Origin: an uncultured Verrucomicrobiota bacterium
GTDB lineage: Bacteria; Verrucomicrobiota; Verrucomicrobiia; Limisphaerales; UBA9464
NCBI GenBank assembly: GCA_903821635.1
Contig: CAIJLV010000150.1
Span: 25,551 to 89,550 of the forward strand
Direction of reading: 5' to 3'
Length of the DNA stretch: 64,000 nucleotides
Program-made: the position numbers and the translations under genes
Shown here: positions 45,921-63,229 of the stretch, piece after piece
How the letters are laid out: each line of letters opens with the position of its first letter
Position numbering within the stretch: position 1 is the first letter of the stretch
The notes under the pieces: model-generated
The model's input: the letters and a program-made list of their open reading frames with translations, nothing else
Database searches by the model: none
Told to the model about the DNA's origin: nothing

Positions 45921-45938
45921 GATTTTGGGTTGGTTGCC

Positions 45939-47018: not shown

Positions 47019-47038
47019 GGGTGGGGTCCTCTCAAGCG

Positions 47039-47407
47039 TTACTCGGCCATGCCCAGCACTCGTAGTTTGTCGAACAGCATTTCTTCGGTGAGCGGCTTCA
47101 TCAGATAGTCGTCCGCTCCCGCCTCGATGGCTTGGGACACTGTATCGAAACCGTTCTGGGCCGTGACCATCATGAGTTTCATATCGGCATAACGGGAATC
47201 GGCCCGAACTGTTTTCACGAAATCTAGGCCATTCATTATGGGCATGTCCCAATCCACCAGCGCCAGATCGAAGGGCGCTTCTTGGCCCAAGACGGTGAGG
47301 GCGGCCTGGCCGTCGCCAGCTTCCGCGATGTTTTCAGTCAGGGGCGCTAGAAAGGATGACAGCAGGCGCCGCATGGTTCGCGAATCGTCGATAATTAAGA
47401 TTTTCAT
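47039..47407 (-). CDS. cheY: Chemotaxis response regulator CheY
   Basis: 122-aa single receiver: 'MKILIIDDSRTMRR', 'ALVDWDMPIMNG', 'MMVTAQ' and 'DYLMKP'. Confidence 0.85.
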   Translation of the reverse strand: MKILIIDDSRTMRRLLSSFLAPLTENIAEAGDGQAALTVLGQEAPFDLALVDWDMPIMNGLDFVKTVRADSRYADMKLMMVTAQNGFDTVSQAIEAGADDYLMKPLTEEMLFDKLRVLGMAE

Positions 47408-47571
47408 GCTTCAGTAGGTTTCGGCGGACACTTCAGAAAATGGCGCCCACTTTGCGTTCCTTCGCGCCAACGCCCGCCCACCCACCGCCCACTGACCAAG
47501 ACCCGTTGCAGGGCCCCGGCGCTGGGGCGGCGGCGTGCGGAACGTGAGGGGACCAACAGCTGGGTCCAGAC

Positions 47572-49653
47572 TCAGCGGGTTCTTGCATGTTCGACCACCT
47601 GCTGGAGCTCGGAAGCCAGTTTCGCCAGCTCCGCCGAGGCGGTCAGCGTGTTGGCCGCCCCTTCCGAGGTGCTCTTGGCCGCTTGCGAGACGCTGGAGAT
47701 GTTACGGGCGATCTCGTCGCTGCCGCGCGCGGCTTCAGACGCATTGCGCGCAATCTCGTTGGTCGTCGCGGTTTGTTCTTCGACCGCACTGGCGATCGTG
47801 TTCTGGATGTCGTTGATCTGGTTGATGATCTGGCTGATCTGTTCGATCGCGCCGACGGCACTCCGGGTGTCGGTTTGGATCGCCTCGATTTTGCCGCTGA
47901 TGTCCTCGGTAGCGGCCGCAGTCTGTTTGGCCAACTCCTTGACCTCGTTGGCCACGACCGCGAAGCCCTTACCAGCCTCGCCCGCTCGGGCCGCTTCGAT
48001 CGTCGCATTCAAGGCCAGCAGATTCGTCTGCTGCGCGATGGAAGTGATGACTTTGATGACTTTACCAATCTCAGTGCTGCTCTCGCCGAGTTTGGCGACC
48101 GTCTTATTGGTCGTCTGGGCGACCAGCACGGCGTCGCTGGCCACGCGGGCGGCTTGGGAGGCGTTCTTGGCAATTTCTTTGACGCTCGCGCTCATCTCTT
48201 CGGCGCTGGTCGCCACGGTGGACACGTTCCGGCTGATCTGTTCGGACGCAGCGGCTGCGACTCCCGCTTGGGCGGTGGTCTCTTCCGAATTTGAACTCAA
48301 CTGCTGCGAAGTAGCGGAAAGTTCTTCCGCCGCCGAGGCCAGCGTCTGCGCGTTTCTGGCCACCTGATCCACCGTGGTGATGAGGCCCGCCTCAGCCACT
48401 TTTCGGCCGGTGATGTCGGAGGCGAATTTTACCACCTTGTGAACCCGGCCGGCCGAATCAAAGACCGGATTGTAAGTGGCTTGCAGCCAAACCGCTTTGC
48501 CGCCCTTGCCCACGCGTTGGTATTCTGCGGTCTGGAATTTGCCTTCGTTGAGGTCGCGCCAGAACTGCTGGTATTCCGCCGTGCCGCGATAAACTGGATC
48601 CACAAAAGTGGAGTGATGCCGGCCGCGGATCTCGTCTTGCGTATATCCCATGACGTTCAAGAAGTTCTGGTTAGCGGTCACTACCGTGCCATCCGCCAAG
48701 AACTCAATGACCGCCTGCGTGCGGTTGCTCTCCGCGATCTGGCGCGCCTTGTTATCGGCGTCCACCTTCTGGGCTGTCACGTCAGTGGCGATTTTTATCA
48801 CCTTGGTCACCCGCCCCATTTCATCTTTGACGGGTGCATAGACTGCCTGAATCCAGACTTCGCGACCGTCTTTGGCAACGCGCTTGAACATGTCGGATTG
48901 GGATACCCCCGCATTGAGGTCAGCCCAGAACTGGATGTATTCCGCAGTGCGGGCAAAGGCCGGATCCACGAACAGGCGATGGTGTTTACCCACCACTTCT
49001 TCGAGGGCATAACCCAAGGTTGCCAGGAAGTTCTTGTTCGCGTTGGTCACCACGCCCTTGGGGTCGAACTCGACGAAGGCATAGGCGCTGTCGATGGCGG
49101 CCAAAATCCCCCGGCTATTCTGCCGTTCGATTTCCGCCGCCGTAATGTCATAGCGCACCCCTATGTATTTGCGGGGCTTGCCATTCTCGCCGAGCACCGG
49201 CGCGATGACGGCATCGACGTAGTAGGGGCTGCCATCCTTCTTCCGATTCTTGATGATTCCGCGAAAGGGTTTGCCCTTGCCGATAGTCGCCCAGAGTTCA
49301 CGGAACACTTCCTTGGCCATGTCGGGATGGCGGGTCGTGTTATGGGGCCGGCCAATCAGCTCATCGCGCCCGTATTGGGAGACCTCGATGAACTTATCGT
49401 TGATGGACAGGATGTCCCCCTTGAGATCGGACTCTGAGACAATGCTCGTCATGTTGGTGATCTCAGCCCGAACCTTTAGCTCGATGAGCTCTTCGGCTTG
49501 GGCGGCCAACTGGGCCCGGGCACTGGCCAGTTCCTCGGAAAGGTCTACCGCGGGCGCCGCGCCGTTTTGTTTTTGGCGGTGGGGCCGACTCGTAGAGGGG
49601 GCGTGGGCAGAAGCTTTGAGGGCCACGTTACTTGGAGGCAGTAAGGTTTTCAT
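47572..49653 (-). CDS. Soluble methyl-accepting chemotaxis protein with multiple N-terminal PAS domains
   Basis: At least three PAS-like units ('[27 protein letters not shown]', '[26 protein letters not shown]', '[26 protein letters not shown]'). MCP tip '[34 protein letters not shown]'. The ATG at 49653 avoids overlap with cheW. Confidence 0.85.
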
Positions 49654-49711
49654 GCAGTTATTTGAGCTCTGGTAGTTAGTGGATTCTTGGAAAATTTTCG
49701 GGCGGGCCGTT

Positions 49712-50155
49712 TCAGCAGACGCGTTCAACAGTGGCGGGCTGACACGTGATTTCTTCAACTTCGAGGGCGATGAGGATGTGCTCCTTCAGGCGGTAAACCC
49801 CGGTGACCATTTCACGCACCAAGCTCGAAATGGTTCCTGGAGCCGGCTCCAGCGTGCTGTCGTCCACCTCGATCACATCGCCAACCCCATCCACGAGCAG
49901 GCAGAAGGCGCCGTCCCCCGTGCGAATGACGATGATGACGGGGTCATTCCCGGTCGCGAGCGGGGGGAGTTCGATTCGCTGCCGAAAATCGATGGCCGTG
50001 ACGATCTGACCTCGGAGATTGATGAGCCCGCGCACCGTCTTGTGCGACAGGGGCACCCGGGTCATTCGTTGGTGCCGGATGACTTCTTGAACGTTCAGGA
50101 CGGGCACTCCAAACAGGAAGTCAGCCACATGAAAGGTGCAGAACTGGTGAGTCAT
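49712..50155 (-). CDS. cheW: Chemotaxis coupling protein CheW
   Basis: 147 aa; '[19 protein letters not shown]', '[18 protein letters not shown]' and '[12 protein letters not shown]'. Confidence 0.85.
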
Positions 50156-50175
50156 GGAAGCGATTCGGTTGAGGG

Positions 50176-52548
50176 CTAGAGTGAAGGGGCAACTGTGAAG
50201 AAGGCCGGGGCCGCGCGGCGGATAACACCGCGGACATCCAGGAGGTCGGTCACCTGCCCCTGCACCAGGGCTGAACCCAAGATGCCCTCCTCCAGTCCGT
50301 GCCGTTCTACCACCACCTTTTCCTCCACAATGTCGATGATCCGGTCCACGACCAGACCGACGCTGCGACCCTGATCGGAATAGACGACTACCTGCAGGAC
50401 GTCCGGACTGACGATTCCGGGACCCCGGCCCAACTGGTTGGCGACATCGATGAGCGGGAGAATGGCTCCGCGATACTGGACCGCTTCCCGGCGACCGCTG
50501 CGTTCGATCTTGCCCCGGGGGAATTCTTCCAACCGGGCCGCCTCGGAAAGGGGCATGGCGAAGCGGGAGTTTTCGCCGGCATCGAAGACCAGCAGCGTCT
50601 GCCGGTTCCCCTCGTCCGTCGTTTCTGCGGCGGCCGTAGACGTGTTGGTCCCTGCCCGGTTTTCCGCGAGCACCGCGGCGTGTTGGCCGATTCCGAGGAC
50701 ATCGAGAATCAGCGCAACGCAGCCGTCGCCCATGATGGTCGCCCCGGCAAAACAGGTCAGCCCCTTGAGTTGTTTCCCCAGGGGTTTGACCACGATTTCC
50801 TGCGTGTCGTTGACCGCATCCACGACCATGCCGAACTGCCGCCCGTCGGCCTGCAAAACCACCAAGTTTCTGACGTCGTCCGCACTGGTCATTTCTGAGG
50901 TGCCGCCCAATTCGAGCGTGCGGTTGAGATAGACCAGCGGCAGCAACTTGCCCCGTAGCCGAAAGACGGGGGCATTGAAGACCGTTTCGATGCCGTTCTT
51001 GCCGTCCGGCCCTTCGATGCGAACGAGCTCAAGCAAACTCACTTGGGGAATCGCAAAACGCTCGCCGCCGCTCGTAATGATCAGCGCCGGAATGATGGCC
51101 AGCGTCAGGGGGATCTTAAACTTGATCGTGGTTCCCTGCCCCAGCTCACTGTGGATGTCCACCGAGCCGCCGATGCGTTCGACGTTGGTCTTCACCACGT
51201 CCATCCCGACACCGCGACCGGACACATTGGTCACCTTGGCGGCGGTGGAGAGTCCGGGCAGAAAGATCAGGCTGACGGCCTCGCGATCGCTGAGCCGGGC
51301 CGCCATATCAGGCGTAATTAACCCCTTTTCCAGGGCCTTTTGTTTGACCCGCTCGGGGTTGATGCCCGCGCCATCGTCGGCGATCTCGATGTTGACCTGG
51401 CCGCCCTCATGGTAGGCGCGAATGAAGAGCAGGCCCGTGGGTGATTTGCCCGCCTGCGTGCGGAGGTCCGGCATTTCGATGCCGTGATCGATTGAGTTGC
51501 GGACGACGTGGGTGAGCGGGTCCTTGATCGCCTCGATGATGGTGCGATCCAGTTCGGTTTCCCGCCCCGCCATTTCCAACCGCACCTGCTTGCCAAGTTC
51601 GTTCGCCACGTCGCGAACGATCCGCGGGAAACGCGTCAAAACGCTGTCGATCGCCTGCATCCGCGTCTTCATCACGCCTTCCTGCAACTCGCTGGTGATG
51701 TGATTGAGCCGCTGGGCCACGGCCTGAAGTCCGGCGTCCCGGGAAGTCACCAAGTGCTGGGCGATTTGGTTGCGCGCCAAAACCAGTTCGCCAACGAGAT
51801 TCATCAGTCGATCCAACTGCGCGACATCCACGCGGATCGCCGTCTCCGCCACCGACGTCTTGGCCCCCGCATCGGCGACCGGAACTGGGGCGCTTGGAAC
51901 TGACACCTTGGGCAGCGCCTTGACGGCCGCTACGACAGCGGCAGCCGGCACCGCGGGAGCAGGCGTCACACTGAGGGGCACAGCGGGAGTCGGAGTCGGA
52001 GTCGGAGTCGGAGTCGGGGCGCTATCGTCAAACAATCCCCAGCCGTTTTCGGCGGCGACCTCCTCGTCCAACACCACCGGAGCACCCACCGGCGCCATTT
52101 CGACCGGCGCAATTTCGGCCGGCGCGGCTTCGGCCGGAGCCGCCGCTTCGGGCGTTTGCAGATCGCGCAGCAATTGGAGCACTTCGGAATAATCGCGGTC
52201 GCCTTCAGAGCGGGTCGTTTCCAGCAAGTGCAGCATCTCGCGCAACACGTCAGCGTAACGCAGGAGCGCCGAAATGATCGCCCGGGTGACCGTTAGTTTA
52301 TGCTCCCGCACCAGACTCAGGAGGTTTTCCCCCACGTGCGCCACGCGCTCGATCTTCTGGAGGCCAAGACAACCCGCGGTGCCCTTGATCGTGTGGATGA
52401 CGCGAAACATCCGGTTCAGGATATCCGGCCCGCCGGTGCCGGCTTCCAGCGCCAAGAGGTCACGGTCGAAACTGTCCAGCCCCTCGAAACTTTCGATGAG
52501 CAGGTCCTTGATCAATTGTTCGTGGAGGTCGGTTTTCATCGGGTTCAA
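50176..52548 (-). CDS. cheA: Chemotaxis histidine kinase CheA
   Basis: Hpt 'FRVIHTIKGTAGCLGL'. A Pro/Ala/Thr-rich linker. Dimerisation and HATPase regions ('HVVRNSIDHGIE','DDGAGI','GRGVGMDVV'). A C-terminal CheW-like domain. Confidence 0.9.
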   Translation of the reverse strand: MNPMKTDLHEQLIKDLLIESFEGLDSFDRDLLALEAGTGGPDILNRMFRVIHTIKGTAGCLGLQKIERVAHVGENLLSLVREHKLTVTRAIISALLRYADVLREMLHLLETTRSEGDRDYSEVLQLLRDLQTPEAAAPAEAAPAEIAPVEMAPVGAPVVLDEEVAAENGWGLFDDSAPTPTPTPTPTPAVPLSVTPAPAVPAAAVVAAVKALPKVSVPSAPVPVADAGAKTSVAETAIRVDVAQLDRLMNLVGELVLARNQIAQHLVTSRDAGLQAVAQRLNHITSELQEGVMKTRMQAIDSVLTRFPRIVRDVANELGKQVRLEMAGRETELDRTIIEAIKDPLTHVVRNSIDHGIEMPDLRTQAGKSPTGLLFIRAYHEGGQVNIEIADDGAGINPERVKQKALEKGLITPDMAARLSDREAVSLIFLPGLSTAAKVTNVSGRGVGMDVVKTNVERIGGSVDIHSELGQGTTIKFKIPLTLAIIPALIITSGGERFAIPQVSLLELVRIEGPDGKNGIETVFNAPVFRLRGKLLPLVYLNRTLELGGTSEMTSADDVRNLVVLQADGRQFGMVVDAVNDTQEIVVKPLGKQLKGLTCFAGATIMGDGCVALILDVLGIGQHAAVLAENRAGTNTSTAAAETTDEGNRQTLLVFDAGENSRFAMPLSEAARLEEFPRGKIERSGRREAVQYRGAILPLIDVANQLGRGPGIVSPDVLQVVVYSDQGRSVGLVVDRIIDIVEEKVVVERHGLEEGILGSALVQGQVTDLLDVRGVIRRAAPAFFTVAPSL
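51987..52016. repeat. (GAGTCG)x5 hexanucleotide microsatellite inside the cheA linker; encodes (Pro-Thr)5
   Basis: Five perfect tandem copies read directly. They correspond to 'PTPTPTPTPT' in the CheA P1-P2 linker. Confidence 0.8.
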
Positions 52549-53690
52549 AAGGTCGAGTCAGACGCCGGCTGGGTTGGCAGGGAGGAGGCGGATTCACCTC
52601 GCACTCCGCCATGGGGGAGGGTGAAAAAAAACGTGGCGCCTTGATTGACCGCGGATTCAGCCCAGATCCGGCCGCCGTGGCGTTCGACGATGCGTTTCAC
52701 GATCGTCAAACCGATGCCGGTGCCGCTGAATTCCGCTGGGGAGTGGAACCGCTGGAAGGCCCCAAACAAACGGGCCGCCTTGTCCATGGCAAAGCCGGCG
52801 CCGTTATCGCGCACAAAATACCGGGTGGCGTCAGCGGTTCCACTACACCCGAACTCGATGCGGGCCGGATGGCAGCGGGAACTGAATTTCCACGCGTTGC
52901 GCAGCAGGTTTTCGAGCGCCAAGCGCAGCAGGCCCGCGTCCCCTTTGACGCGCAGTCCGGGACTGAGACACCAGTCGACCCGGCGCCGGTCGGAGTTCCA
53001 CTGCAAGTCGGTGGCGATCTGCGTCACTAGGTCGGTGAGGTCCACTTCGTCTTGTCGTAGCGGGCTCAAGGCGGCCCGCGACAGTTTCAGGAGATCGTCG
53101 ATGATATTCCGGGCGTGGGCGGAGGCCTGGGAAATTTCCGCGAGATGCGGCAGCACCTCTTGCGGACACCCAGCCTTCAAATCCAACAGGGCGATTTCCG
53201 TCAGCGATTCGATGGCGCCCAAGGGCGTTTTGAGGTCGTGGGCGACCATGCGGCTGAACGCCTCCAACTCCTGGTTGCTTTGTTCCAAGTCCCGCACGCG
53301 CCCGGCCAGCGAGCGTTGCAGTCCGACCATGCGTTCGCCGATCTGCACCCGCGCCAAGAGCGCCTCCTCATCGAACGGCTTGGTCACATAGTCGTCCGCC
53401 CCGGACTTCAACCCGCGAATGATCTCGTTCCGCCCTGAGTGCACCGTGAGCAGCATGAGATAGGGGGGCTGGGTGGTCGGTTGAGTCCGCAGTTCCCGGC
53501 ACACGTCCACGCCCTCCATTCCTGGCATGTGCCAATCAATGATCGCCATGCCCGGGGCATTCGGCGCGAGCATCATCGCCAGCGCGTCAGTGCCATTGGG
53601 GGCCTCCACCACGTGGTGTCCCTCAGCTTCGAGCAGAGCCCGCAACATCGTGCGAATGGGCTTGCTGTCGTCGGCCACGAGAATGTTCAT
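52545..53690 (-). CDS. Hybrid receiver-histidine kinase (REC + HisKA + HATPase_c)
   Basis: 'MNILVADDSKPIRTML...AIIDWHMPGMEG...DYVTKPF', then the H-box 'FSRMVAHDLKTPL', N-box 'LLRNAWKFS' and G-boxes 'DNGAGF' and 'GTGIGLTIV'. The ATG at 53690 is internal to the 517-aa track ORF. Its stop overlaps the cheA start. Confidence 0.85.
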   Translation of the reverse strand: MNILVADDSKPIRTMLRALLEAEGHHVVEAPNGTDALAMMLAPNAPGMAIIDWHMPGMEGVDVCRELRTQPTTQPPYLMLLTVHSGRNEIIRGLKSGADDYVTKPFDEEALLARVQIGERMVGLQRSLAGRVRDLEQSNQELEAFSRMVAHDLKTPLGAIESLTEIALLDLKAGCPQEVLPHLAEISQASAHARNIIDDLLKLSRAALSPLRQDEVDLTDLVTQIATDLQWNSDRRRVDWCLSPGLRVKGDAGLLRLALENLLRNAWKFSSRCHPARIEFGCSGTADATRYFVRDNGAGFAMDKAARLFGAFQRFHSPAEFSGTGIGLTIVKRIVERHGGRIWAESAVNQGATFFFTLPHGGVRGESASSLPTQPASDSTF

Positions 53691-53728
53691 GCGAGGCAGA
53701 TGGAAGCGGGGTGGGAAGAGGCGGAACC

Positions 53729-54098
53729 TCAGGCGGGCAAAACCTTGGCCACCACCGCGACGAGTTGTTCCGGCTGAAAAGGCTTCACGATCCAACCTGT
53801 GGCGCCGGCCGCCCGTCCCTTGCTCTTCATTTCGGGATCGGATTCGGTGGTCAGCAGGATGATCGGCACCCGACTGTAGGCCGGCAGCGCCCGGAGCTCC
53901 CGGGGTGAGATCGAGGCCATTCATGTTGGGCATGTTGACATCGGTGATGATCAGATCCATGGGCCGACTGCGGGCCATCTGCAACGCCACCACCCCATCG
54001 GGCGCCTCGACCACCGTGTGCCCCGTCGCTTTCAGGGCGAACACGATCATCCGCCGCATCGTGGTCGCATCGTCTACCGTCATGATCGTCTTACTCAT
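53729..54098 (-). pseudogene. CheY-like single-domain response regulator carrying a 1-nt frameshift
   Basis: 'MSKTIMTVDDATTMRRM...DLIITDVNMPNMNGLDLT' (frame a) continues as 'RELRALPAYSRVPIILLTTESDPEMKSKGRAAGATGWIVKPFQPEQLVAVVAKVLPA' (frame b, track ORF 53729..53920). The junction is the G4/C4 run at 53902-53905. Confidence 0.75.
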
Positions 54099-54305: not shown

Positions 54306-56309
54306 TCAAAACAGCTCGATGTTATCACCCAACGGCATCGGGGCGGGCGCGGCCGCCGGCGGGGGGGCGGCCACTGGGGCAGCCACCGGGGCGGCGGTAG
54401 GCGGATTGGTCGGGGGCTCGTCCGCTTGGAAAAAAACGCAATCTGCCGCCGCCGGCGCGGCCGCGACGGCCGAAACAATCGCCCCGACCGGCGCCGAGCC
54501 CGCCGTGGCCGCTTGTTTGCGGGCGAGGATCGTCTCGTGAATCGCCCGCTCCGAAGCCACCGTGTAATTGGCCTGTAATCGGGCGCTTTCTTGGGCCCCC
54601 TGCGAATCGGCCAACAAGTCAAAAGAGGCGGTCTGATCCACCACCGTTTGAATCGCACCAACAAGTTGTTCCAAATCGGCGTTGGCCGCCTCGGCAAACG
54701 GCAGGTGCTCCACCGCTGCCCGCGCCTCGTCACGCGTCTGCCCCACCATCACGCCAAATTTTTGAAACGTATCGAGGGTGACATCGCGGTGTTGGTGCAG
54801 TCGCACTTTCACCGCTTCCGCCTCCGCCTCCAGCCACTGCTGCTGGGCGGCCACCGCATCCTGCAGCTCCTTGCACTCCGCCACCAAGGAATCGAATCCA
54901 GTGATCAACCGGTCTAGTCCCGCCGCGGCCTCGTTGTTGGCGACGGAGGCCTCATCGGCAATCTGGCAGGTCCGCTGAGAGAGCACTTCCAACCCCGTGC
55001 CCACCCCGACTTGGGCGGCTTGGATCTGGGCGTTGAGGGCGATGATGCGAATGCTTTGGGAGAGCCGGCGCATCGCCCCGGTGAGGTCGGAAGCCATGCC
55101 CGCGAGCGGCTTCAGCGTTTCATACACTTCGGACTGGATCGCAAAGGTCTGCCGCACGAGGCCGGCAAGCTCATCCAGCGAATTCAGCACGACCTGCACC
55201 ACGCCGTCTTCTTGCACCGAAATTGTCCGGAAATCGCGCAACGTCAGGCACTCGCGATCCACTTCGTCGGTCCGTTCGATGATGGCGTCAAACGCCTCGG
55301 CAATCGCCAGTTCCGCCTGGCTCAGTTCCGCCTCCACCGCGACCACCTGCCCCACCTGCACCTCCCCGGTCTCCCTCAGGAAGGCGCCCGCCGCCGGCCA
55401 AGAATTGCGGTCAGCTCCCGCCAACCGCTGGCCCATACCCACGAGCGCGTCATCGACGTGTTTGAGCTTCTGCCGGGTGATATCCTCGAACTGAACCGCC
55501 CCAATCACCCGCGCCACCGCCGTTTGGAGGCCATGGGCGGCATCGGCTAGGCGAACGTCGCGGCCGCGGTTCTCTTCCAACGCGAGCCGAAGACCTTCGA
55601 GGGTTTGGGCGATCACCGCTTTTTTCTGCACCGCCGCCTGCTGGTGCAACTGGATTTGAGGCCCCAACCGCACCACCAAGGCGCCGAGCTGAGACTCGGC
55701 CAGTTCCAGACTTTTAAACTGCTCGGAAAACAGGTTCAGCACCTGCTCGTGGAGTTGCTCAATATCTCGGGTCAGCGAAACGAATACCGCCCGAACCCCG
55801 GCATCCAGCACTGAAGACTCAATCCGAAAGGCCACTTGGATGAACCGTAACGGCGCCACGACGGATTCCATGATTCCTTCGAGATGGCGAACCTCCGTGA
55901 TCAACTGTTGGTGCCGGCGCAGGTGCTCAACCACCTCGGCTGAACGAGCGAGGCAGTCATCCAGCACCTTGATCGGCGGCTGGAGCACATTGATCGCTTC
56001 GTGAAGCTGATCTTCGCCATCCGCTTGGCCCGTGGCCAACCGGAGCAAATGTTCGCCGGTGGCCACGACGTCTTCGCTCAGTTGGGCGAGCTTTTCGAGG
56101 CGGGTCCCAATTTGGAGAAAGTGCTGTTCCAAGCGGGTCCCGATTTCCCCGAGCACGGGCCGTTCGGCCTCGACCACGGAAAAATTAAGGGCCAACTGCC
56201 GGCGGATGGCGGGGTTGTGACGACTGACAGTCTGCCGCATCTGACCCCACCAGCGGGCGGGAAGCATCCGACCGGCTGACCACACGTTATGAAACCGTCT
56301 TGTAATCAT
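54306..56309 (-). CDS. Soluble MCP-like protein with a divergent signalling domain
   Basis: 'SQSIRIIALNAQIQAAQVGVGTGLEVLSQRTCQIADEA' resembles the MCP hairpin tip but is degenerate. The protein is long and coiled-coil-like and contains 'VQFEDITRQKLKHV'. It has a Pro/Ala-rich tail ending '...GDNIELF'. A sigma-28-like motif 43 nt upstream supports the start at 56309. Confidence 0.6.
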   Translation of the reverse strand: MITRRFHNVWSAGRMLPARWWGQMRQTVSRHNPAIRRQLALNFSVVEAERPVLGEIGTRLEQHFLQIGTRLEKLAQLSEDVVATGEHLLRLATGQADGEDQLHEAINVLQPPIKVLDDCLARSAEVVEHLRRHQQLITEVRHLEGIMESVVAPLRFIQVAFRIESSVLDAGVRAVFVSLTRDIEQLHEQVLNLFSEQFKSLELAESQLGALVVRLGPQIQLHQQAAVQKKAVIAQTLEGLRLALEENRGRDVRLADAAHGLQTAVARVIGAVQFEDITRQKLKHVDDALVGMGQRLAGADRNSWPAAGAFLRETGEVQVGQVVAVEAELSQAELAIAEAFDAIIERTDEVDRECLTLRDFRTISVQEDGVVQVVLNSLDELAGLVRQTFAIQSEVYETLKPLAGMASDLTGAMRRLSQSIRIIALNAQIQAAQVGVGTGLEVLSQRTCQIADEASVANNEAAAGLDRLITGFDSLVAECKELQDAVAAQQQWLEAEAEAVKVRLHQHRDVTLDTFQKFGVMVGQTRDEARAAVEHLPFAEAANADLEQLVGAIQTVVDQTASFDLLADSQGAQESARLQANYTVASERAIHETILARKQAATAGSAPVGAIVSAVAAAPAAADCVFFQADEPPTNPPTAAPVAAPVAAPPPAAAPAPMPLGDNIELF

Positions 56310-56351: not shown

Positions 56352-56377
56352 GCATCGGCATAACGCGCCGCCACTTG
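56352..56377 (-). promoter_or_regulatory. Sigma-28-type promoter candidate upstream of the MCP-like gene
   Basis: The minus strand reads CAAG-N15-CCGATGC. The -10 element ends about 42 nt before the ATG at 56309. Confidence 0.4.
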
Positions 56378-56531
56378 AGTCCCGAGCCACATTCTGTTTC
56401 GCCACCAAGGCTCGGAGCTAAAGCCGGACGCTAGCCCGCCGATGAACCCTCCAGCGGTTGGCGCGCACCCGTTAACGAATAGCGAAACGGGCTCGGGCGA
56501 GCCCCCCCTTAGTTCGAAGTTTCGTCCCACC

Positions 56532-58136
56532 ATGCCCGGTTCCTCGCCCAACCAGCTTTCGCCCCGTCGCGGGCGTGTTCTTGGCGTTGAAGATGACGCC
56601 ATCTCGCGGCGCGCCTTGGAGCTGCATTTGCAGCGGAGCGGGTTTGATGCGGTGATGGCCAGCGACGCGGCGCAGGCCCGGACCCAGTTCACACTCAGCG
56701 GTAGTTCCCGATTCGACTGCGTCGTGACGGACTTCCGGATGCCCGGGGAAACCGGGGCGGAATTGCTCACTTGGCTAAGGACTCAGGATGCCACCCTGTC
56801 GTCGATCATGCTGACGGCCAAAGGGGAGCGGCAAATCGTGCTCGATTCCCTGCGGGCCGGCGCGTGCGATTTTATCGAAAAACCGTATCGGCAAATGGAG
56901 TTGGCCAGCGCCATCGATGGGGCGATCAAATGCACCCGCGACCAACGGTGGCTTTCCCAGACCCAGGCCGAGGCCCTCGCCGTGGGCCAGACCCAACGCC
57001 GGTTGCTGGCGGCCAGCTCCGGCACCCTTACCAACGGGGTGGTCTTTTGCCATTATCCCAAGCACGGGGCCGGGGGGGATTTTTTTACCGTCTTTCCGCT
57101 CGACCAAGACCGCTTGCTAGTGCTGGTGGCCGACGTCTCGGGACACGATCTCCAGGCCGCCTTCATCTCGGCGTATTTTCAAGGCATCACCCGGGGCATG
57201 CTGGAAAAGCAGACGAAAATCACGGCCATCCTGAACTTCTTCAACTGCTACCTGATTCACGAGTGGAACCATTGGCCAGTCGGCCTGAAACAAGCTCCCA
57301 CCTCGATCGCGGTCTGCGCCCTAGTGCTCGACCGCAGGGCCGGTGAAATCACCGTGTTCAATAGCGGCGCTCCGGCCCCTCGGCTGATGGGAGGCGAACT
57401 CGACCGCTGCGCCCGCGCCTTGGAGTTGGGCGGGCATCCGTTGGGATGGTTCGAAGATTCTAAACCCGAGGTTAACCAACTGCTGCTACCCTTGGACGGC
57501 GGAATCATCCTGTGGACGGACGGATTGGAAGATCACGCCCACACTCTGGGCGTCAGCGACTGGAGCCTCGCCTACCGCCTGCTCACGCTCCGAGCCGACA
57601 ACGAAGCCACCAGCCGGCTGGAAGAGGCCCCCGATGACATCCTCGTGGTCCGCCTACCAGTGGGCCTCGACCGACAGGTGGCGGTTCACACTCTACTGGA
57701 CGAGTGCTATCCTGGCTCCGGTTGGCCCCTGATTGACGACTTTCAAGCCCGCTGGGAACGCAGCCTAAAGCTCGCCTTGCCAGCCGCCGCCCCCCAGCGA
57801 TTGGACGAAATCTGCCTCTGCCTGCGCGAAGCCTGCCTGAACGCGTTGCGGCACGGTTGCCAGCAACAACCAGATCAGTCGGCCCGCGTCGTCATCGCCT
57901 ACGAAGTCGGGCCGAATCGGCTCCGGGTCCTCATCGACGATCCCGGTTCCGGCCACAGCTTCGACTGGCAGACCCACGAGCAACGCGCACTCGAAGAACT
58001 CATCGCTGAACACCGCGGTCTGAGCCTTATCAATGCCTTTGCCGATTCGGTTTACTCAGAACGCAACGGGGCCCGCCTGACGCTTGAATTCGCGCTCACC
58101 CCGGGGAGCGGCCTTACTTACCCACCATCAATATGA
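56532..58136 (+). CDS. Three-domain response regulator: receiver + PP2C (SpoIIE-type) phosphatase + anti-sigma-type Ser kinase (HATPase_c); HsbR-like
   Basis: REC 'RVLGVEDDAISRRALE...CVVTDFRMPGETG...IMLTAKG...DFIEKPY'. PP2C 'GGDFFTVFPLDQDRLLVLVADVSGHDLQAAFISAY...WTDGLEDH'. Kinase-like 'LREACLNALRHG...RVLIDDPGSGH...RGLSLINAFADSV'. The start is at 56532 or 56442. Confidence 0.8.
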   Translation: MPGSSPNQLSPRRGRVLGVEDDAISRRALELHLQRSGFDAVMASDAAQARTQFTLSGSSRFDCVVTDFRMPGETGAELLTWLRTQDATLSSIMLTAKGERQIVLDSLRAGACDFIEKPYRQMELASAIDGAIKCTRDQRWLSQTQAEALAVGQTQRRLLAASSGTLTNGVVFCHYPKHGAGGDFFTVFPLDQDRLLVLVADVSGHDLQAAFISAYFQGITRGMLEKQTKITAILNFFNCYLIHEWNHWPVGLKQAPTSIAVCALVLDRRAGEITVFNSGAPAPRLMGGELDRCARALELGGHPLGWFEDSKPEVNQLLLPLDGGIILWTDGLEDHAHTLGVSDWSLAYRLLTLRADNEATSRLEEAPDDILVVRLPVGLDRQVAVHTLLDECYPGSGWPLIDDFQARWERSLKLALPAAAPQRLDEICLCLREACLNALRHGCQQQPDQSARVVIAYEVGPNRLRVLIDDPGSGHSFDWQTHEQRALEELIAEHRGLSLINAFADSVYSERNGARLTLEFALTPGSGLTYPPSI

Positions 58137-58483
58137 AATATGAACTTCAACCCGATTGTTTGGCCGTAGTCGTGCCCGGCAATCTGGTCAGCACCTCAGT
58201 CGAGGCGTTCCGCCTCCAATTCGACGGCATCCTAGAAGATCCCAAAGTCCGCAAGATGGCGCCCAAAACGATGGAACTGGACCTCCGCCAAGCCCGACAA
58301 ATGGACTCCGCCGGCCTCAATCTCTTGGTCACGCTCGTGAAATTGGGCCGGGAGCGCGGGTTCAAACTCCGGGCGCTTGTGGCCAACCCAACCCTGCAGC
58401 GCACGCTCCAGTTCACCCGCATGGATCGCATTCTAGACGTGGTGCCGGTCGCTGAACCGGCCGAACTCGCCGAACCGGCTTGA
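58133..58483 (+). CDS. STAS-domain anti-sigma-factor antagonist (HsbA/SpoIIAA/RsbV-like)
   Basis: 116 aa. 'MELDLRQARQMDSAGLNLLVTLVKLGRERGFKLRALVANPTLQRTLQFTRMDRIL' carries the conserved phosphorylatable Ser in 'DSAG'. It has an ATGA overlap with the upstream gene. Confidence 0.8.
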   Translation: MKYELQPDCLAVVVPGNLVSTSVEAFRLQFDGILEDPKVRKMAPKTMELDLRQARQMDSAGLNLLVTLVKLGRERGFKLRALVANPTLQRTLQFTRMDRILDVVPVAEPAELAEPA

Positions 58484-58615
58484 AGCACCGATGCCGGCGC
58501 TGCCCGCAGCCAAACCCAGAGGGAAGAACCGCGAAGGTGGACACCCTGCTGAAGCGGCCGGCCGGCGGGTGGAGGCAGACGTTCGCGCGTCCGCCCTACC
58601 CACCGATGCCGGCGC

Positions 58616-58996
58616 CTACGAATAGGATTGCCAGGTGGAATTTTGGCCCTGGCCGTAAGAACACCGCAGCCGACGGAGGTTCAGGCCAGACTGCTCCAAA
58701 ACGGCCCGTTCACTCCGGTGGGCTTCCAATTGTTGGGCGAGAAACGCCGAGTTTTCCTCTTCGCGGCGAACCAAATCACGGATGACGCGCTGCAATTCGG
58801 CGGCGCACGCACGCCCGCTGTCCGCCAGCGGGGAGACGCGGCGAGAGCAGGCTTCGACCAACTTCTGGAGTCCGGCCTTCTGCGCCTGCAACTCAGTCAC
58901 CGCCGACCAACTGGCGGCCCGAATGGCGCGGGCTTCAGACTCGGTCAACTCCAGCCAGCGGCCGTAAAGGTCGAGCAGTTCAGTGGCGGCATTCAC
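58616..58996 (-). CDS. Flagellar chaperone-like protein (FliT/FlgN-like)
   Basis: 126-aa helical protein directly downstream of fliS. 'LLDLYGRWLELTESEARAIRAASWSAVTELQAQKAGL' follows the FliT-type pattern. The call rests on position and pattern only. Confidence 0.4.
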   Translation of the reverse strand: MNAATELLDLYGRWLELTESEARAIRAASWSAVTELQAQKAGLQKLVEACSRRVSPLADSGRACAAELQRVIRDLVRREEENSAFLAQQLEAHRSERAVLEQSGLNLRRLRCSYGQGQNSTWQSYS

Positions 58997-59018
58997 CGGG
59001 GAGGGTCTCCTTCACCGC

Positions 59019-59459
59019 TCAGGCGGCGAGCATCGTGGGTAGTTTTTCGGCGGCAGCATCCGCCGGCGACCACGTGTTGCCTTGGAGCATCTGAGCCCAC
59101 GCTTCGCGCAGGACGGTCAGCCGCTGGATCACTTCTTCGATTCCGGCGGGAATCTTCTTCAAGTTACTCTCGTCCAAACGCCGATCGAAGTAGTCGTAAA
59201 GCCGCCGTAGCGTCGCAGCGCAGTCACCGCCCTGCTCCAAGTTCAGCGAGAGATTCAATTCATGAATGATCGCCTGCGCCCGCAGCACGTTGTTGCTGAT
59301 CGTCTCGCAGGATTCAGCCGGATCCTCCAAACCGAACCCGGTGAGCGCACGCTCCATGAATCGAAGTGCGCCATCGAACAACATCAGGACGAGTTGGCCC
59401 GGACTGGCGGTTTGGGTGGCCACCGACCGATAGGATGCCCAAGGATTCACGGCGTGCAT
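59019..59459 (-). CDS. fliS: Flagellin-specific export chaperone FliS
   Basis: 'YRSVATQTASPGQLVLMLFDGALRFMERA', 'LRAQAIIHELNLSLNLEQGGD.A..L..LYDYF..RL' and 'L..LREAW' match. Confidence 0.85.
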   Translation of the reverse strand: MHAVNPWASYRSVATQTASPGQLVLMLFDGALRFMERALTGFGLEDPAESCETISNNVLRAQAIIHELNLSLNLEQGGDCAATLRRLYDYFDRRLDESNLKKIPAGIEEVIQRLTVLREAWAQMLQGNTWSPADAAAEKLPTMLAA

Positions 59460-59471
59460 GTGACTTTGGTT

Positions 59472-59747
59472 TTATTGGGGAGAATCGAAGTTAATCGCCA
59501 ATAGGTTTGCTATCTTTCTGATAGTTTCGGCGGGGGGATACCGGGGATCGGTCGCGAGGGCCTTGCCGCGTTCCACGGCTTCTGTCCGAACTTCCGGCGC
59601 TTCGGCCAGCCGTGCTTCCAATGCCTGCGACTGATCCAGAACTACGTCGTCCGTGCGTGCCGCGGCCTCTTTGGGCCGCACCGGGCCGGAGACCACCTTG
59701 GCGGCAGTCTCCACCGGGGGATTAAGATTAATTTCCATACGGTTCAC
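59472..59747 (-). CDS. Anti-sigma-28 factor FlgM-like protein
   Basis: 91 aa and Ala/Glu-rich. The C-terminal 'VRTEAVERGKALATDPRYPPAETIRKIANLLA' resembles the FlgM C-terminal sigma-28-binding helices. A good sigma-28 promoter lies upstream. FlaG is the alternative call. Confidence 0.5.
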   Translation of the reverse strand: MNRMEINLNPPVETAAKVVSGPVRPKEAAARTDDVVLDQSQALEARLAEAPEVRTEAVERGKALATDPRYPPAETIRKIANLLAINFDSPQ

Positions 59748-59795: not shown

Positions 59796-59822
59796 GTATC
59801 GGCTGGAGCGAGGGGAGCTTTA
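59796..59822 (-). promoter_or_regulatory. Sigma-28-type promoter upstream of flgM-like/fliS/fliT-like
   Basis: The minus strand reads TAAA-N15-GCCGATAC (7/8 in the -10 element, 4/4 in the -35 core), about 48 nt upstream of the ATG at 59747. Confidence 0.6.
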
Positions 59823-59864: not shown

Positions 59865-60548
59865 TCACTGCGCCGGCAGAGTCGCAAAGGTCGCGGCCGC
59901 CGCGTAGGCCGCAAAGCGACGGGGCGAACTCAGCACAATCCGCGAATCGCCCGTCCGGTAGCCCGGCGTCCGGGCGGACTGCTGGAAGCGTCGGGCAGCG
60001 TTGACCACGCTGGCTTCGCGGGCATCAAACACCTCATCCAGCTCCCACAACACCTGGGGTGTCGGACAGCCCACCAGCTTCAGGTGCCACCCGACTGCCA
60101 GCGGCGGATACGATTCATACCGGGTCAACCGCACAAACATCACGGCGTCACACCCCGACTGGTGCTGAAGCCGGCTAAAAAAATCGGCCGGCAACTCGGC
60201 CAGCGCGCTCCAATCACTCCGCCCCGTAGCCTCCGCCAGTTCTCGGGGCGAGAGCCAGACGACTTCAAAGCGCTGCGTCTGTTTCAGGCTGGTCCGCAAG
60301 GTAGATTCCAACTCCGCGCGGGCATCGACCGCCGCCGCACTGTCCACTTCGCTGGTGAGGGGCAACACTAGGACGCGCCGCAACAAGGGGTTTAACCGCC
60401 GGGTTTCCACCTGGACATTGGTCGGCCGAAACGGCGCCCCCAGAACGAGATCGTCCGGGTCCGGCAGCACGCAACCGCCGACCGCGAGGAATCCGCCGAG
60501 GAGGGCGGCTCGAACCTGGGCGCAGAAGGTTGACGGCGGACGGCTCAC
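59865..60548 (-). CDS. Putative lipoprotein of unknown function inside the flagellar cluster
   Basis: Signal and lipobox 'AALLGGFLAVGGC'. I recognised no motif. I prefer the GTG at 60548; the ATG at 60575 would overlap the fliD 3' end. Confidence 0.5.
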   Translation of the reverse strand: MSRPPSTFCAQVRAALLGGFLAVGGCVLPDPDDLVLGAPFRPTNVQVETRRLNPLLRRVLVLPLTSEVDSAAAVDARAELESTLRTSLKQTQRFEVVWLSPRELAEATGRSDWSALAELPADFFSRLQHQSGCDAVMFVRLTRYESYPPLAVGWHLKLVGCPTPQVLWELDEVFDAREASVVNAARRFQQSARTPGYRTGDSRIVLSSPRRFAAYAAAATFATLPAQ

Positions 60549-60561
60549 AAAAGGGACCTCG

Positions 60562-62304
60562 CTATTTGGAAGCACTCGATTGACCCAACTGTTGTTGGAG
60601 GAATTGCAGTTGTTGGTTGACCCGTTGCTGCACGGTTTCCATCGCGATGAAGCTGTCGATCATGCGCTGCCGGTTCTGCTGCACGATTCGTTCTAGGTTC
60701 TCGATTTCCGTATCGATGCCGCCAGCTTGTTTGGTCAGCAAATCTTGGCGATCAATCAGGGTGCCCTCCTCGCCGGCTTCCTCGCCCACGGTGGCTTCCA
60801 GAAAAGTCTCCAAATCCACCGCTAAACCGTCGCTCGCGTTGGTGAACAGGTCGCTGACCGCGCTCAGGTTGTTGGCCAAGGCTGTGTCCAGCTTTGCCTC
60901 ACCCTCGGCGGAGAACGCGAGGGAATTGTCGTTGCCGTTGGTCGTGATCCCAATGTCGGCCAAGTTCTTGAAGACGCCCGTCAGCCCGGAATTTGTGTTG
61001 TAGGCCAAGCGCCGCAAAGCGGAGGAGATTTCAAAGGGTTCCCGCTCATTCGCCAACAGTCCGGCAGTGACCTTGCCCTTGGAATCCGTGCTGCTGGCCG
61101 TCTGAGTGTCGATGACCGACTGAGCCTTGTTGTAGTCGGCAATGAAGTCGGTGATCGCGGTCTTGATCGTCGCCGTATCAGTCGCCACCACGACGTCAAA
61201 AGTCGCCCCCTCTTCCAACGCGGTGACCGACAGACCAGTCAGCCCCGAACTGCCTTCCGTAATGGTGTTGGACTGACTGCTCAACTGCCCGCCGCCGTTA
61301 ACCGTGTAGAGTAGATTGTTGCCCCGCGTGACCGTGCCCGAACTGAGTCCCGTCGCGGCGAGAAAATTACCGGTGACGTCCTCCAGCGCGACTCCGAGGT
61401 CGCCTGTCGTCTTGTTGGTCAGGATGAAGCGGTCGTTCACCGAATCGTAGCTGGCCGAGACCCCGGCCGCCGAATCGTTGATCCGCTGGAGAATGTTGCC
61501 GAGGTTGTCGGTGGCGCTGTCAAACTCGATGGCCACCCCGTTGATTTTGAACTCCCCGGCCCCGCTGCCACCATCCGTGATGGCGGTCGCCAGATTGGAG
61601 TTGGCCAGCGTGCCCGTGGTCACGACTCCACCCACGGCGCTGGAACTGGTGGCGGTCGCCGTCCCGTTATTTTGCAACCGGGCCACCTGCAAGAAATTGC
61701 TCGAATCCGTCGCACTCCCGAGGATGACTTCGCCCGAAGTCGCGGTGAAGGAAATCTGGTCCGTGGCGGAACTGTAGCTGGCCACCACATCGCCGCCGGT
61801 CGCAGTCCCGATCTGGTCAAAGACGTCCTGCAACGTATCGGTGGTTGCGATGGTGATCTGCTTGCCGTTGACCGTGAAGGTGCCGGCCGAGACGGCGGTG
61901 CTGAACCCGGCGGTGCTGAGATTCACGCCCGACACGTCGTCCGTCGCGCTCAACGCCGCGCCGGCGTTGGCGCTGCCCCGCTGAGCCGCCGCGGTGGCAA
62001 GCTGCGTGACATTGAAAGTGTAGCTGCCCAACGGCGTCGCCGCCGCCGCCGTGGCCGTGGCCGCGGACGTATTGCTCACCGTCGTCGTGCGGCCGTTGAA
62101 GAGTGAGCCGTCGGTCAACGCCTGAACCCGGTTCAGCAGGACGTTGAGCTGCGTCTTGATGCTGCCGTAGGCGTTGTTGCGCTGTTCGAGCCGGTTTTGC
62201 TCGACCAGCAACCGTTGTTGGGGCTGGCGCTCGACCTCGACCAGTTGCTCGACCAGCGACTTCCAGTCAAAGTTAGAGGCCAAGCCAGCCACTCCCAGGT
62301 CCAT
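60562..62304 (-). CDS. fliD: Flagellar filament capping protein FliD (hook-associated protein 2)
   Basis: N-terminus 'GLASNFDWKSLVEQLVEVERQPQQRL...QRNNAYGSIKTQL'. C-terminus 'IENLERIVQQNRQRMIDSFIAMETVQQRVNQQLQFL'. Ser/Thr/Gly-rich centre. Confidence 0.85.
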   Translation of the reverse strand: MDLGVAGLASNFDWKSLVEQLVEVERQPQQRLLVEQNRLEQRNNAYGSIKTQLNVLLNRVQALTDGSLFNGRTTTVSNTSAATATAAAATPLGSYTFNVTQLATAAAQRGSANAGAALSATDDVSGVNLSTAGFSTAVSAGTFTVNGKQITIATTDTLQDVFDQIGTATGGDVVASYSSATDQISFTATSGEVILGSATDSSNFLQVARLQNNGTATATSSSAVGGVVTTGTLANSNLATAITDGGSGAGEFKINGVAIEFDSATDNLGNILQRINDSAAGVSASYDSVNDRFILTNKTTGDLGVALEDVTGNFLAATGLSSGTVTRGNNLLYTVNGGGQLSSQSNTITEGSSGLTGLSVTALEEGATFDVVVATDTATIKTAITDFIADYNKAQSVIDTQTASSTDSKGKVTAGLLANEREPFEISSALRRLAYNTNSGLTGVFKNLADIGITTNGNDNSLAFSAEGEAKLDTALANNLSAVSDLFTNASDGLAVDLETFLEATVGEEAGEEGTLIDRQDLLTKQAGGIDTEIENLERIVQQNRQRMIDSFIAMETVQQRVNQQLQFLQQQLGQSSASK

Positions 62305-62425: not shown

Positions 62426-63229
62426 TTATTGCAGCAGACGGAGGGCGGACTGCGGCGTGGAGTTCGCCTGAGCGAGCATCGCGGTGCCTGCCTGGACCAG
62501 GATGTTCAACTTGGCGAAGTTGGTGCTTTCCTCAGCCACATCCACGTCCTTGATGCGGCTGTTGGCCGCGGACAGGTTGTCTTTGAGGACTGACAATTGT
62601 TCCCCATAGGAGCCCAACACCGAGATGTTGGCGCCCAGGTTGGCGCGATCCGTGGCCATCTGGTCGATGGCAGCCTTCACGTTGGTGAGGGCAGTGGCCG
62701 CATTGGCTGCTGTATCCACCGTCGAAGCGGTGGCGGTGGTATAGGCTGCCGCCGCAAGATCCACGCCAGTGGTGCTGAAGGCGTTGCCGTCGCTATCCAC
62801 CGTGACGTCGAGGGCCGTGCCGTCAAACAGCGCGATCTCGTTAAACTCTTTGGTGGCAATATCGTCTACGTAGGCACCCAGTTGGGTGAACTCCGCATTG
62901 TAGAGAGCCCGATCTGCATCTGATTTGGTGACGTCCTGCGCCGCAATGGAGAGTTCGCCCATTCGGTCAAACGCCTTGCCAACCTTCTGCATATAACCGT
63001 CCTGCGTCTGGTTGAATGACACGGCATTGCCGATGTTGGAACTCGCCGCCTTGATTCGACTGATCTGTGCGTCGAAGCGCACCGACACGGCAAGACCGGC
63101 CGCGTCATCTTCCGGCGAAATAATTTTCGAGCCAGAGGACAACCGCGACAGCGATTTGCTGAGCGATGAGGACGATTCCGAGAGGAGGCGCGCGCTAGTG
63201 AGTGCCGCCGTATTAGTATTGATGACCAT
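62426..63229 (-). CDS. fliC: Flagellin
   Basis: 'MVINTNTAALTSARLL...LSRLSSGSKIISPEDDAAGLAVS' and the C-terminus 'EESTNFAKLNILVQAGTAMLAQANSTPQSALRLLQ'. It is short (267 aa). Confidence 0.9.
   Translation of the reverse strand: MVINTNTAALTSARLLSESSSSLSKSLSRLSSGSKIISPEDDAAGLAVSVRFDAQISRIKAASSNIGNAVSFNQTQDGYMQKVGKAFDRMGELSIAAQDVTKSDADRALYNAEFTQLGAYVDDIATKEFNEIALFDGTALDVTVDSDGNAFSTTGVDLAAAAYTTATASTVDTAANAATALTNVKAAIDQMATDRANLGANISVLGSYGEQLSVLKDNLSAANSRIKDVDVAEESTNFAKLNILVQAGTAMLAQANSTPQSALRLLQ

Follow-up and report, generated by a model that had tools for sequence, protein, structure and literature searches.

A predicted CrsR/HsbR-type partner-switching module between chemosensory and late flagellar genes in a Verrucomicrobiota genome

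We analysed a 64,000-nucleotide stretch of DNA, hereafter the window (contig CAIJLV010000150.1, positions 25,551 to 89,550 of the forward strand, assembly GCA_903821635.1), from an uncultured, Opitutae-like Verrucomicrobiota bacterium whose metagenome-assembled genome (MAG) comprises 4.66 Mb in 237 contigs and is 87% complete. Two overlapping plus-strand genes in the window encode a three-domain response regulator, which we call the switch protein, and a small STAS-domain protein. The pair is divergent from a chemotaxis (che) operon headed by a gene that we call U700, and is followed by minus-strand flagellar genes that include a flgM-like gene (Table 1). Judged by its domains and motifs, the locus is a Verrucomicrobial partner-switching module of the CrsR/HsbR type, in which translation of the STAS substrate is coupled to that of the regulator. 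It takes a known type of system into a new phylum, and neither the system nor its mechanism is of a new kind.

The switch gene encodes its three domains in a single open reading frame (ORF). Pfam models matched a receiver (REC; Response_reg, E 2e-21), a SpoIIE/PP2C phosphatase (5e-17) and a HATPase_c_2 domain of the GHKL type (8e-15), in the order REC, PP2C, GHKL that marks an HsbR/CrsR-type regulator and that is recorded for nearly all of 120 listed homologues. A first-pass annotation, made from the letters alone, had described a receiver, a PP2C phosphatase and an anti-sigma-type Ser kinase in one polypeptide of 534 amino acids (aa); the domains held up, and the length agrees with a start at ATG 56532, which was chosen by gene callers (P0005) and is supported by homologues. 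The longest form of the ORF spans 56442-58136 (+); we rejected its start codon at 56442 because it falls inside a sigma-28-type -10 element and because alignments with homologues begin only at about residue 12-16 of the 534-aa form.

All three domains have intact motifs. Across 27 homologues with 30-57% identity (numbering of the 534-aa form), the following residues are invariant or nearly so: in the receiver, the acid pocket, the phospho-acceptor Asp D67, T95 and K117; in the phosphatase, D183, D201, G204-H205-D206, D330-G331 and D368-D369, the metal-binding Asp included; and in the kinase, E433 and N437 of the N-box, D470, G472 and G474 of the G1 box, and G496-L497 of the G2 box. An alignment of the kinase domain with RsbW spans the N-box and the G1 box. 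The ATP-binding residues, whose absence the first-pass annotation had named as a reason to abandon its reading, are thus kept in the N-, G1- and G2-boxes. The best solved-structure match of the switch protein was the REC-PP2C protein 3eq2/3f7a, and its closest named homologue was from Nibricoccus (45% identity), with others from Opitutaceae and Verrucomicrobiae. A search of the genome found no other kinase or STAS paralogue of the switch family, and one further PP2C only.

The stop codon of the switch gene overlaps the start codon of the STAS gene in an ATGA at 58133-58136. The STAS ORF (58133-58483) matched Pfam STAS with an E of 7.5e-11, and an NCBIfam model for anti-sigma-factor antagonists matched it with a score below the model cut-off; no specific NCBIfam model was matched by the switch protein, the STAS protein or the product of the flgM-like gene. 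Ser59, in the sequence MDSAGLN, occupies in alignments the position of the Ser that is phosphorylated in TM1442 and SpoIIAA, and is Ser in 72/73 partner proteins from related loci. The pair therefore has what a partner switch of this type calls for, a STAS antagonist encoded next door whose DSxG motif contains a phosphorylatable Ser, and the translational coupling and 'DSAG' Ser of the first-pass annotation are both present.

Fusions occur among relatives of the switch protein. Some are REC-Hpt-REC-PP2C-GHKL proteins of about 790-850 aa, such as P0032 (L021:10001-12388), and in others, of about 660-670 aa, a STAS domain is fused to the switch protein; the natural fusions of both kinds together comprise P0032, P0030, P0038, P0049 and P0070. 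They support functional links between Hpt and receiver and between kinase and STAS protein.

To our knowledge, experimental descriptions of CrsR/HsbR-type switches are confined to gamma-proteobacteria. We compared the window pair with these by domain architecture and published descriptions, and with the Bacillus switches also by alignment of motifs. HsbR of Pseudomonas aeruginosa is a REC-PP2C-kinase/anti-sigma protein whose receiver is phosphorylated by HptB; unphosphorylated HsbA binds FlgM, freeing FliA, while phosphorylated HsbA binds HsbR and HsbD (PMC6482189), the latter a diguanylate cyclase (PMC6482189, PMC5085249). RpoS is bound by both HsbR and CrsR, and homologues of these two regulators are described as widespread in Proteobacteria (PMC6482189). 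In Shewanella, crsR-crsA lies inside the che1 locus (PMC9855816), and ancestral F7 che clusters of gamma-proteobacteria contain an anti-sigma antagonist and a Ser phosphatase whose function is called unclear there (PMC7184735).

The window pair shares with HptB-HsbR-HsbA (PA3345-PA3347; PMC6482189, PMC5085249) the same domain order at similar positions (HsbR has 571 aa, against 534 aa here), a STAS partner with a phosphorylatable Ser (Ser59, against Ser56 in HsbA), candidate Hpt-type donors encoded in the genome, with a REC-Hpt module fused to the switch protein in some relatives, and a flagellar context that includes a flgM-type gene. The Pfam domains match the published description of HsbR (PMC6482189), and the pathway that the first-pass annotation had recognized, in what it took to be a phylogenetically distant organism, is the appropriate comparison; the phylum is Verrucomicrobiota. 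Unlike the Pseudomonas system, the pair here lacks an hptB gene in its operon, is divergent from U700 and a complete che operon, has its own sigma-28-type promoter motif and neighbours a highly divergent FlgM. With CrsR-CrsA of the Shewanella oneidensis che1 (F7) cluster and the ancestral F7 systems (PMC9855816, PMC7184735) it shares a three-domain regulator and STAS antagonist in or beside a che cluster with soluble PAS-type receptors, and this che linkage is the one that is evolutionarily conserved in the window family. Those systems, however, are gamma-proteobacterial and target RpoS, whereas the window system belongs to another phylum, and its che operon has an extra REC-HisKA kinase, a gene for a novel protein resembling methyl-accepting chemotaxis proteins (MCPs) at its head, and late flagellar genes abutting. 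RsbU/RsbV/RsbW and SpoIIE/SpoIIAA/SpoIIAB of Bacillus likewise combine a PP2C phosphatase, a GHKL Ser kinase/anti-sigma factor and a STAS antagonist, with alignable motifs; in the window, by contrast, phosphatase and kinase are fused under a receiver domain and the operon has no sigma factor gene.

The flgM-like gene, read from the GTG at 59747 as in the first-pass annotation (59472-59747, -; 91 aa), is separated from the end of the STAS gene by 989 bp; a start at the ATG at 59738 gives a product of 88 aa. It is the sole FlgM candidate in the whole genome. A family profile built from six close relatives and searched in 1.8 billion representatives gathered 1027 members at E <= 1e-3, mostly of about 88 aa, with YPP...LLA conserved at the C-terminus (P0125-P0273). 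FlgM was the only recurring Pfam family among the best 150 members (15/150, best E 1.9e-5), and a search of the PDB with the profile returned one match, an FlgM (9wsf_B, E 0.037), which covered the expected C-terminal motif. When compared one to one with the profile, enterobacterial FlgM proteins reached 7-10 bits (p about 1e-4).

The distribution of this family follows that of FliA. In a sample of 251 genomes across the phylum, it was present in 15/27 FliA-positive and 0/224 FliA-negative genomes, and within the class 17/19 FliA-positive genomes carry it, 16 with one match and one with two. One genome that lacks the family (G202) has a canonical FlgM instead (33.6 bits); another (G232) has a single ORF matched by both the family profile and Pfam FlgM, bridging to canonical FlgM, and in at least six further genomes the top genome-wide Pfam FlgM match is the 88-aa family ORF itself. 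FlaG, an alternative identity that the first-pass annotation had allowed for, gave no match, FlgM being the only family seen. Given family-level remote homology and co-occurrence with FliA as a single such gene, the 88-aa protein is very probably a divergent FlgM, as the first reading of the gene had proposed.

We found sigma-28-type motifs before both the flgM-like gene and the switch operon. The pattern TAAA-N14-16-GCCGATA has a single match in the window, at 59796-59822 (-), where 0.02 would be expected by chance; this is the sigma-28 promoter that the first-pass annotation had assigned to the flgM-like gene. The switch-operon motif, which emerged in a looser scan, is shared with L022, L023 and L037, the three closest relatives, while distant loci mostly lack it: a TAAG-type variant lies near the start in L053 and L073, and in L031 and L076 the motifs are weaker and lie over 200 nt upstream of the switch gene. 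Genome-wide, TAAA-N15-GCCGAT[AG] has 10 matches against about 1.8 expected, five of which precede motility or signalling genes, two of these being operons in the window. Motifs precede a PAS gene followed by a REC-Hpt gene (C221:16894-16919, -), a gene for a REC protein with a weak Hpt match of 18 bits, below the Pfam cut-off (C93:33818-33843, +), and a REC-HDOD gene (C186:19566-19591, +). These positions point to membership of the switch, and of possible relay proteins, in the sigma-28 regulon and suggest that there may be a sigma-28-dependent set of phosphorelay proteins. A scan of the locus for sigma-70 promoters and terminators found nothing above chance.

Downstream of the pair, the minus-strand genes are transcribed in the order flagellin, fliD, lipoprotein-like gene, flgM-like gene, fliS and FlgN-like gene. 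The last of these encodes a protein ending in WQSYS and adjoins fliS also in L022, L024, L034 and L037, the same four loci in which homologues of the lipoprotein-like gene occupy the same position. Upstream, the U700 protein is helical, and its family profile matched the MCP signalling domain 2ch7 (E 3e-5). U700 and its homologues (for example L022:7676-9694) share the motif LQFQDI(x)xQKLxH. It can be aligned in register, at a score of only 0.8 bits, with QDFQDLTGQ of E. coli CheZ, the stretch that holds the active-site Asp and Gln of CheZ. The C-terminus consists of a Pro/Ala-rich linker and then a conserved (G)xNVELF. U700 may act as a scaffold that resembles a receptor and bears a phosphatase motif of the CheZ type.

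The 517-aa ORF that follows U700 in the che operon joins half a CheY (53729-54098) to a REC-HisKA-HATPase_c kinase (52545-53700), both on the minus strand. A frameshift or assembly error in the window is likely, because in a relative (L020) these are two separate genes, for a 122-aa CheY and a 375-aa REC-histidine kinase (REC-HK).

Table 1. Features of the locus, in order of window position
Feature	Position	Strand	Basis
che operon as a whole	45087-54098	-	Pfam
CheR	45087-45920	-	Pfam
CheB	45939-47252	-	Pfam
Triple-PAS MCP	47572-49758	-	Pfam
CheW	49712-50155	-	Pfam
CheA (Hpt, H-kinase_dim, HATPase_c and CheW domains)	50176-52548	-	Pfam
CheY fragment fused to REC-HisKA-HATPase_c kinase	52545-54098	-	Pfam
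U700, 667-aa divergent soluble MCP-like protein; divergent from switch operon, heads che operon	54306-56309	-	
Weaker sigma-28-like motif TCAA-N15-GCCGATGC, 43 nt upstream of U700 gene	56352-56378	-	looser scan
Sigma-28-type motif TAAA-N15-GCCGATGA, upstream of switch operon	56419-56445	+	looser scan
HsbR/CrsR-like response regulator (switch protein), 534 aa	56532-58136	+	Pfam, catalytic residues, RsbW alignment
REC domain of switch protein	~56577-56915	+	
PP2C domain of switch protein	~57105-57644	+	
HATPase_c_2 Ser kinase/anti-sigma domain of switch protein	~57789-58085	+	
STAS anti-sigma-factor antagonist, 116 aa; phosphorylatable Ser59 (codon 58307-58309)	58133-58483	+	Pfam, alignments
FlgN-like export-chaperone candidate, 126 aa; last gene of flgM-like operon	58616-58996	-	Pfam FlgN E 0.007, below threshold
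fliS, flagellin export chaperone	59019-59459	-	Pfam FliS 2e-30; NCBIfam TIGR00208 83.5 bits, above cut-off
Divergent FlgM-like protein, 88 aa from ATG 59738	59472-59738	-	family-level profile evidence
Sigma-28-type motif TAAA-N15-GCCGATAC, for flgM-like/fliS/flgN-like unit	59796-59822	-	pattern search
Lipoprotein-like gene between fliD and flgM-like gene	59865-60575	-	no Pfam or NCBIfam family
fliD	60562-62304	-	Pfam
Flagellin	62426-63229	-	Pfam

Which of the two neighbourhoods, chemosensory or flagellar, has the longer association with the pair was evident from a synteny survey of 80 related loci in representative genomes, each taken with 10 kb on either side as far as its contig extended; the loci are mostly from Verrucomicrobiota, with a few records labelled Acidobacteriota or Planctomycetota. 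The STAS gene directly follows the switch gene in 72/80 loci. CheA, CheW or MCP genes, U700, or both lie within 10 kb of the pair in 38/77 full-length rows, the window included. U700 is the most constant neighbour, present in 27/80 loci and always immediately beside the pair, either divergent upstream or directly downstream of the STAS gene. Besides the window itself, only 4/80 loci have FliS, FlgM-like, FlgN-like, lipoprotein and FliD genes beside the pair; L022, L024 and L037 belong to the window's small clade, and L034 is independent. A tree of switch proteins places the window in a group with L022, L023 and L037 (SH-like approximate likelihood ratio test (SH-aLRT) support 99), and this group is nested within 10 rows, the window and nine loci, that are all linked to both che genes and U700. 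Of two annotated contigs, one (L020) has a gene order identical to that of the window; in the other (L021), a che operon and U700 homologue are divergent from a REC-Hpt-REC-PP2C-GHKL fusion and STAS gene, and flagellar genes are not nearby. From the survey, the tree and these contigs, the chemosensory cluster is an old, conserved partner of the pair and the flgM neighbourhood is recent and clade-specific. The proximity to flgM that the first-pass annotation had stressed is real in the window and is not a feature of the family.

This history bears on a reading in which the module, as in CrsR systems, is the output of the adjacent chemosensory pathway: its GHKL domain would control an RpoS-like group-2 sigma factor, with the STAS protein as antagonist, and the nearness of flgM would be coincidental and lineage-specific. 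Old and widespread linkage to U700 and the che operon, next to a recent and rare flagellar neighbourhood, is consistent with this, as is the retention of the switch by non-flagellated genomes. Three group-2 sigma factors resembling RpoS/RpoD are present in the genome (286-293 bits with the RpoS model, whose cut-off they do not reach), so that sequestration of a sigma factor by the GHKL domain is feasible, and there are precedents in the binding of RpoS by CrsR and HsbR (PMC6482189), in the position of crsR-crsA within Shewanella che1 (PMC9855816) and in the antagonist and Ser phosphatase of ancestral F7 clusters (PMC7184735). The sigma-28-type motif before the switch operon, conserved in the clade, and the strong tie of the switch family to FliA-positive genomes nevertheless speak against it, and we consider it a possible but on balance unlikely account; it is also compatible with a FlgM route, both routes being used by HsbA and HsbR in Pseudomonas.

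The position of U700, directly flanking the pair wherever it occurs, could also point to a STAS protein that acts on a target other than a sigma factor, either a component of the chemosensory array such as U700 itself or an enzyme, much as phosphorylated HsbA binds the diguanylate cyclase HsbD (PMC6482189, PMC5085249). A GGDEF gene is absent from the locus, however, and for such a contact gene order is the only support, which makes this quite improbable.

The association with FliA is a property of the switch family at large. FliA was above the NCBIfam cut-off in the window genome, on contig C130, and in 48/49 genomes carrying the switch family. Within the phylum sample, where FliA occurs in 25/251 genomes, 7/9 switch carriers have it (Fisher p = 2e-6). 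This correlation would also fit a GHKL domain that is itself an anti-sigma-28 factor, holding sigma-28 as SpoIIAB holds sigma-F, with the STAS protein as its antagonist and FlgM untouched; HATPase_c_2 is the SpoIIAB/RsbW type of domain, and the switch protein is the sole kinase of its family detected in the genome. We regard this as very improbable: we found no precedent in the literature consulted, the same genomes have a conserved FlgM-like protein, and two carrier genomes are without FliA.

Candidate phosphodonors are available both beside the pair and elsewhere in the genome. The two Hpt- or receiver-containing kinases that the first-pass annotation had noted nearby, CheA and the REC-HisKA-HATPase_c kinase, lie 2.4-6.3 kb upstream on the minus strand. 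The search for a stand-alone Hpt protein that it had proposed yielded one of 126 aa (C105:20524-20904, motif HNLKG); there is also a REC-Hpt protein (C221:15436-16695), in addition to the REC protein with the weak Hpt match on contig C93. The REC-Hpt module of the fused relatives matches the C221 protein across both domains, at only 25-39% identity, like its hybrid-kinase matches. Separately, a 7.8-kb contig (C70:432-6210) carries a second CheA (731 aa) beside a PAS-HK-REC hybrid kinase and a further flagellin-like gene, so that the genome has at least two CheA kinases.

The explanation we favour, with moderate confidence, is that the locus encodes a CrsR/HsbR-type switch that is co-expressed with the flagellar regulon, is fed by che or Hpt proteins and most likely frees sigma-28 from FlgM. 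Phosphorylation of the receiver Asp, by the neighbouring CheA or REC-HK or by a REC-Hpt or Hpt relay protein, would shift the switch protein from kinase to phosphatase activity on Ser59 of the STAS protein, whose phosphorylation state would decide its binding partner. In this clade the most likely output is that unphosphorylated STAS protein would release sigma-28 from FlgM, as for HsbA, because the switch operon has a sigma-28-type promoter motif and adjoins a divergent flgM with the same promoter type; the late flagellar regulon would then feed back on itself. Like CrsR and HsbR, the switch protein may in addition hold a group-2 sigma factor of the RpoS type, through its GHKL domain.

Several results weigh against a FlgM-directed output. 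The Pfam FlgM model (PF04316) gave the 88-aa protein 13.3 bits (E 0.1), below its cut-off of 25, and a profile-profile comparison of the 88-aa family with enterobacterial FlgM, whose template alignment has very low diversity, was not significant. The sigma-28 motifs are consensus matches only, not mapped promoters. Adjacency to flgM as a family-wide trait is refuted by the synteny survey and the tree, which confine it to the window's small clade and L034; in genomes from four further families of the phylum, switch and flgM-like genes are separated by 42-280 kb (three genomes) or are on different contigs (the fourth). In the phylum sample, only 7/27 FliA-positive genomes have the switch. Finally, the complete genomes G118 and G280, from the same Verrucomicrobial family, contain the switch protein and lack FliA and flagellin (regions taken: G118:C5:31500-49000, L102; G280:C72:56500-74500, L103). 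In G118 the STAS gene directly follows and overlaps the switch gene, and comparison of its fetched region with the window proteins found no che or flagellar gene near the switch gene. Because of these non-flagellated carriers and the presence in only 7/27, FlgM is neither a necessary, a universal nor the sole target of the family; the carrier and FliA counts, read together with G118 and G280, indicate a switch family strongly tied to motility without strict dependence on sigma-28 or FlgM.

The first-pass proposal of phosphorelay control of sigma-28 therefore stands in part: a probable FlgM, FliA, candidate Hpt donors and a sigma-28-type motif before the switch operon are all present, while it is the che linkage that is conserved and some carriers are non-flagellated. 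Our best reading of the output is FlgM/sigma-28, an RpoS-like sigma factor, or both, and for the window's clade the FlgM route is plausible, though unproven, by analogy with HsbA. We also entertain, as a doubtful extension, that a dedicated chemosensory array (U700, CheA, CheW and the REC-HisKA kinase) would control flagellar gene expression as well as rotation, acting via the switch to free sigma-28 from the divergent FlgM; with the switch, FlgM and REC-Hpt proteins all in the sigma-28 regulon, this would close a feedback loop.

The three-domain regulator and STAS pair with che linkage is now seen in Verrucomicrobiota and, by record titles, in some Acidobacteriota MAGs too. The FlgM family found here amounts to a large subfamily of about 1000 representative proteins missed by the Pfam threshold; flgM is probably under-annotated in Verrucomicrobiota, where its annotation could improve. 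In one clade the pair appears to have been drawn into the late flagellar regulon, with a sigma-28-type promoter motif before it and flgM beside it, and the flagellar and che contexts of HsbR/HsbA and CrsR/CrsA are thus combined at one locus in another phylum, together with its local particulars: the sigma-28-type promoter motif, the divergent FlgM, the U700 partner and the in-operon REC-HisKA kinase. The locus offers a testable link, outside Proteobacteria, by which chemosensory input may reach sigma-28 availability.

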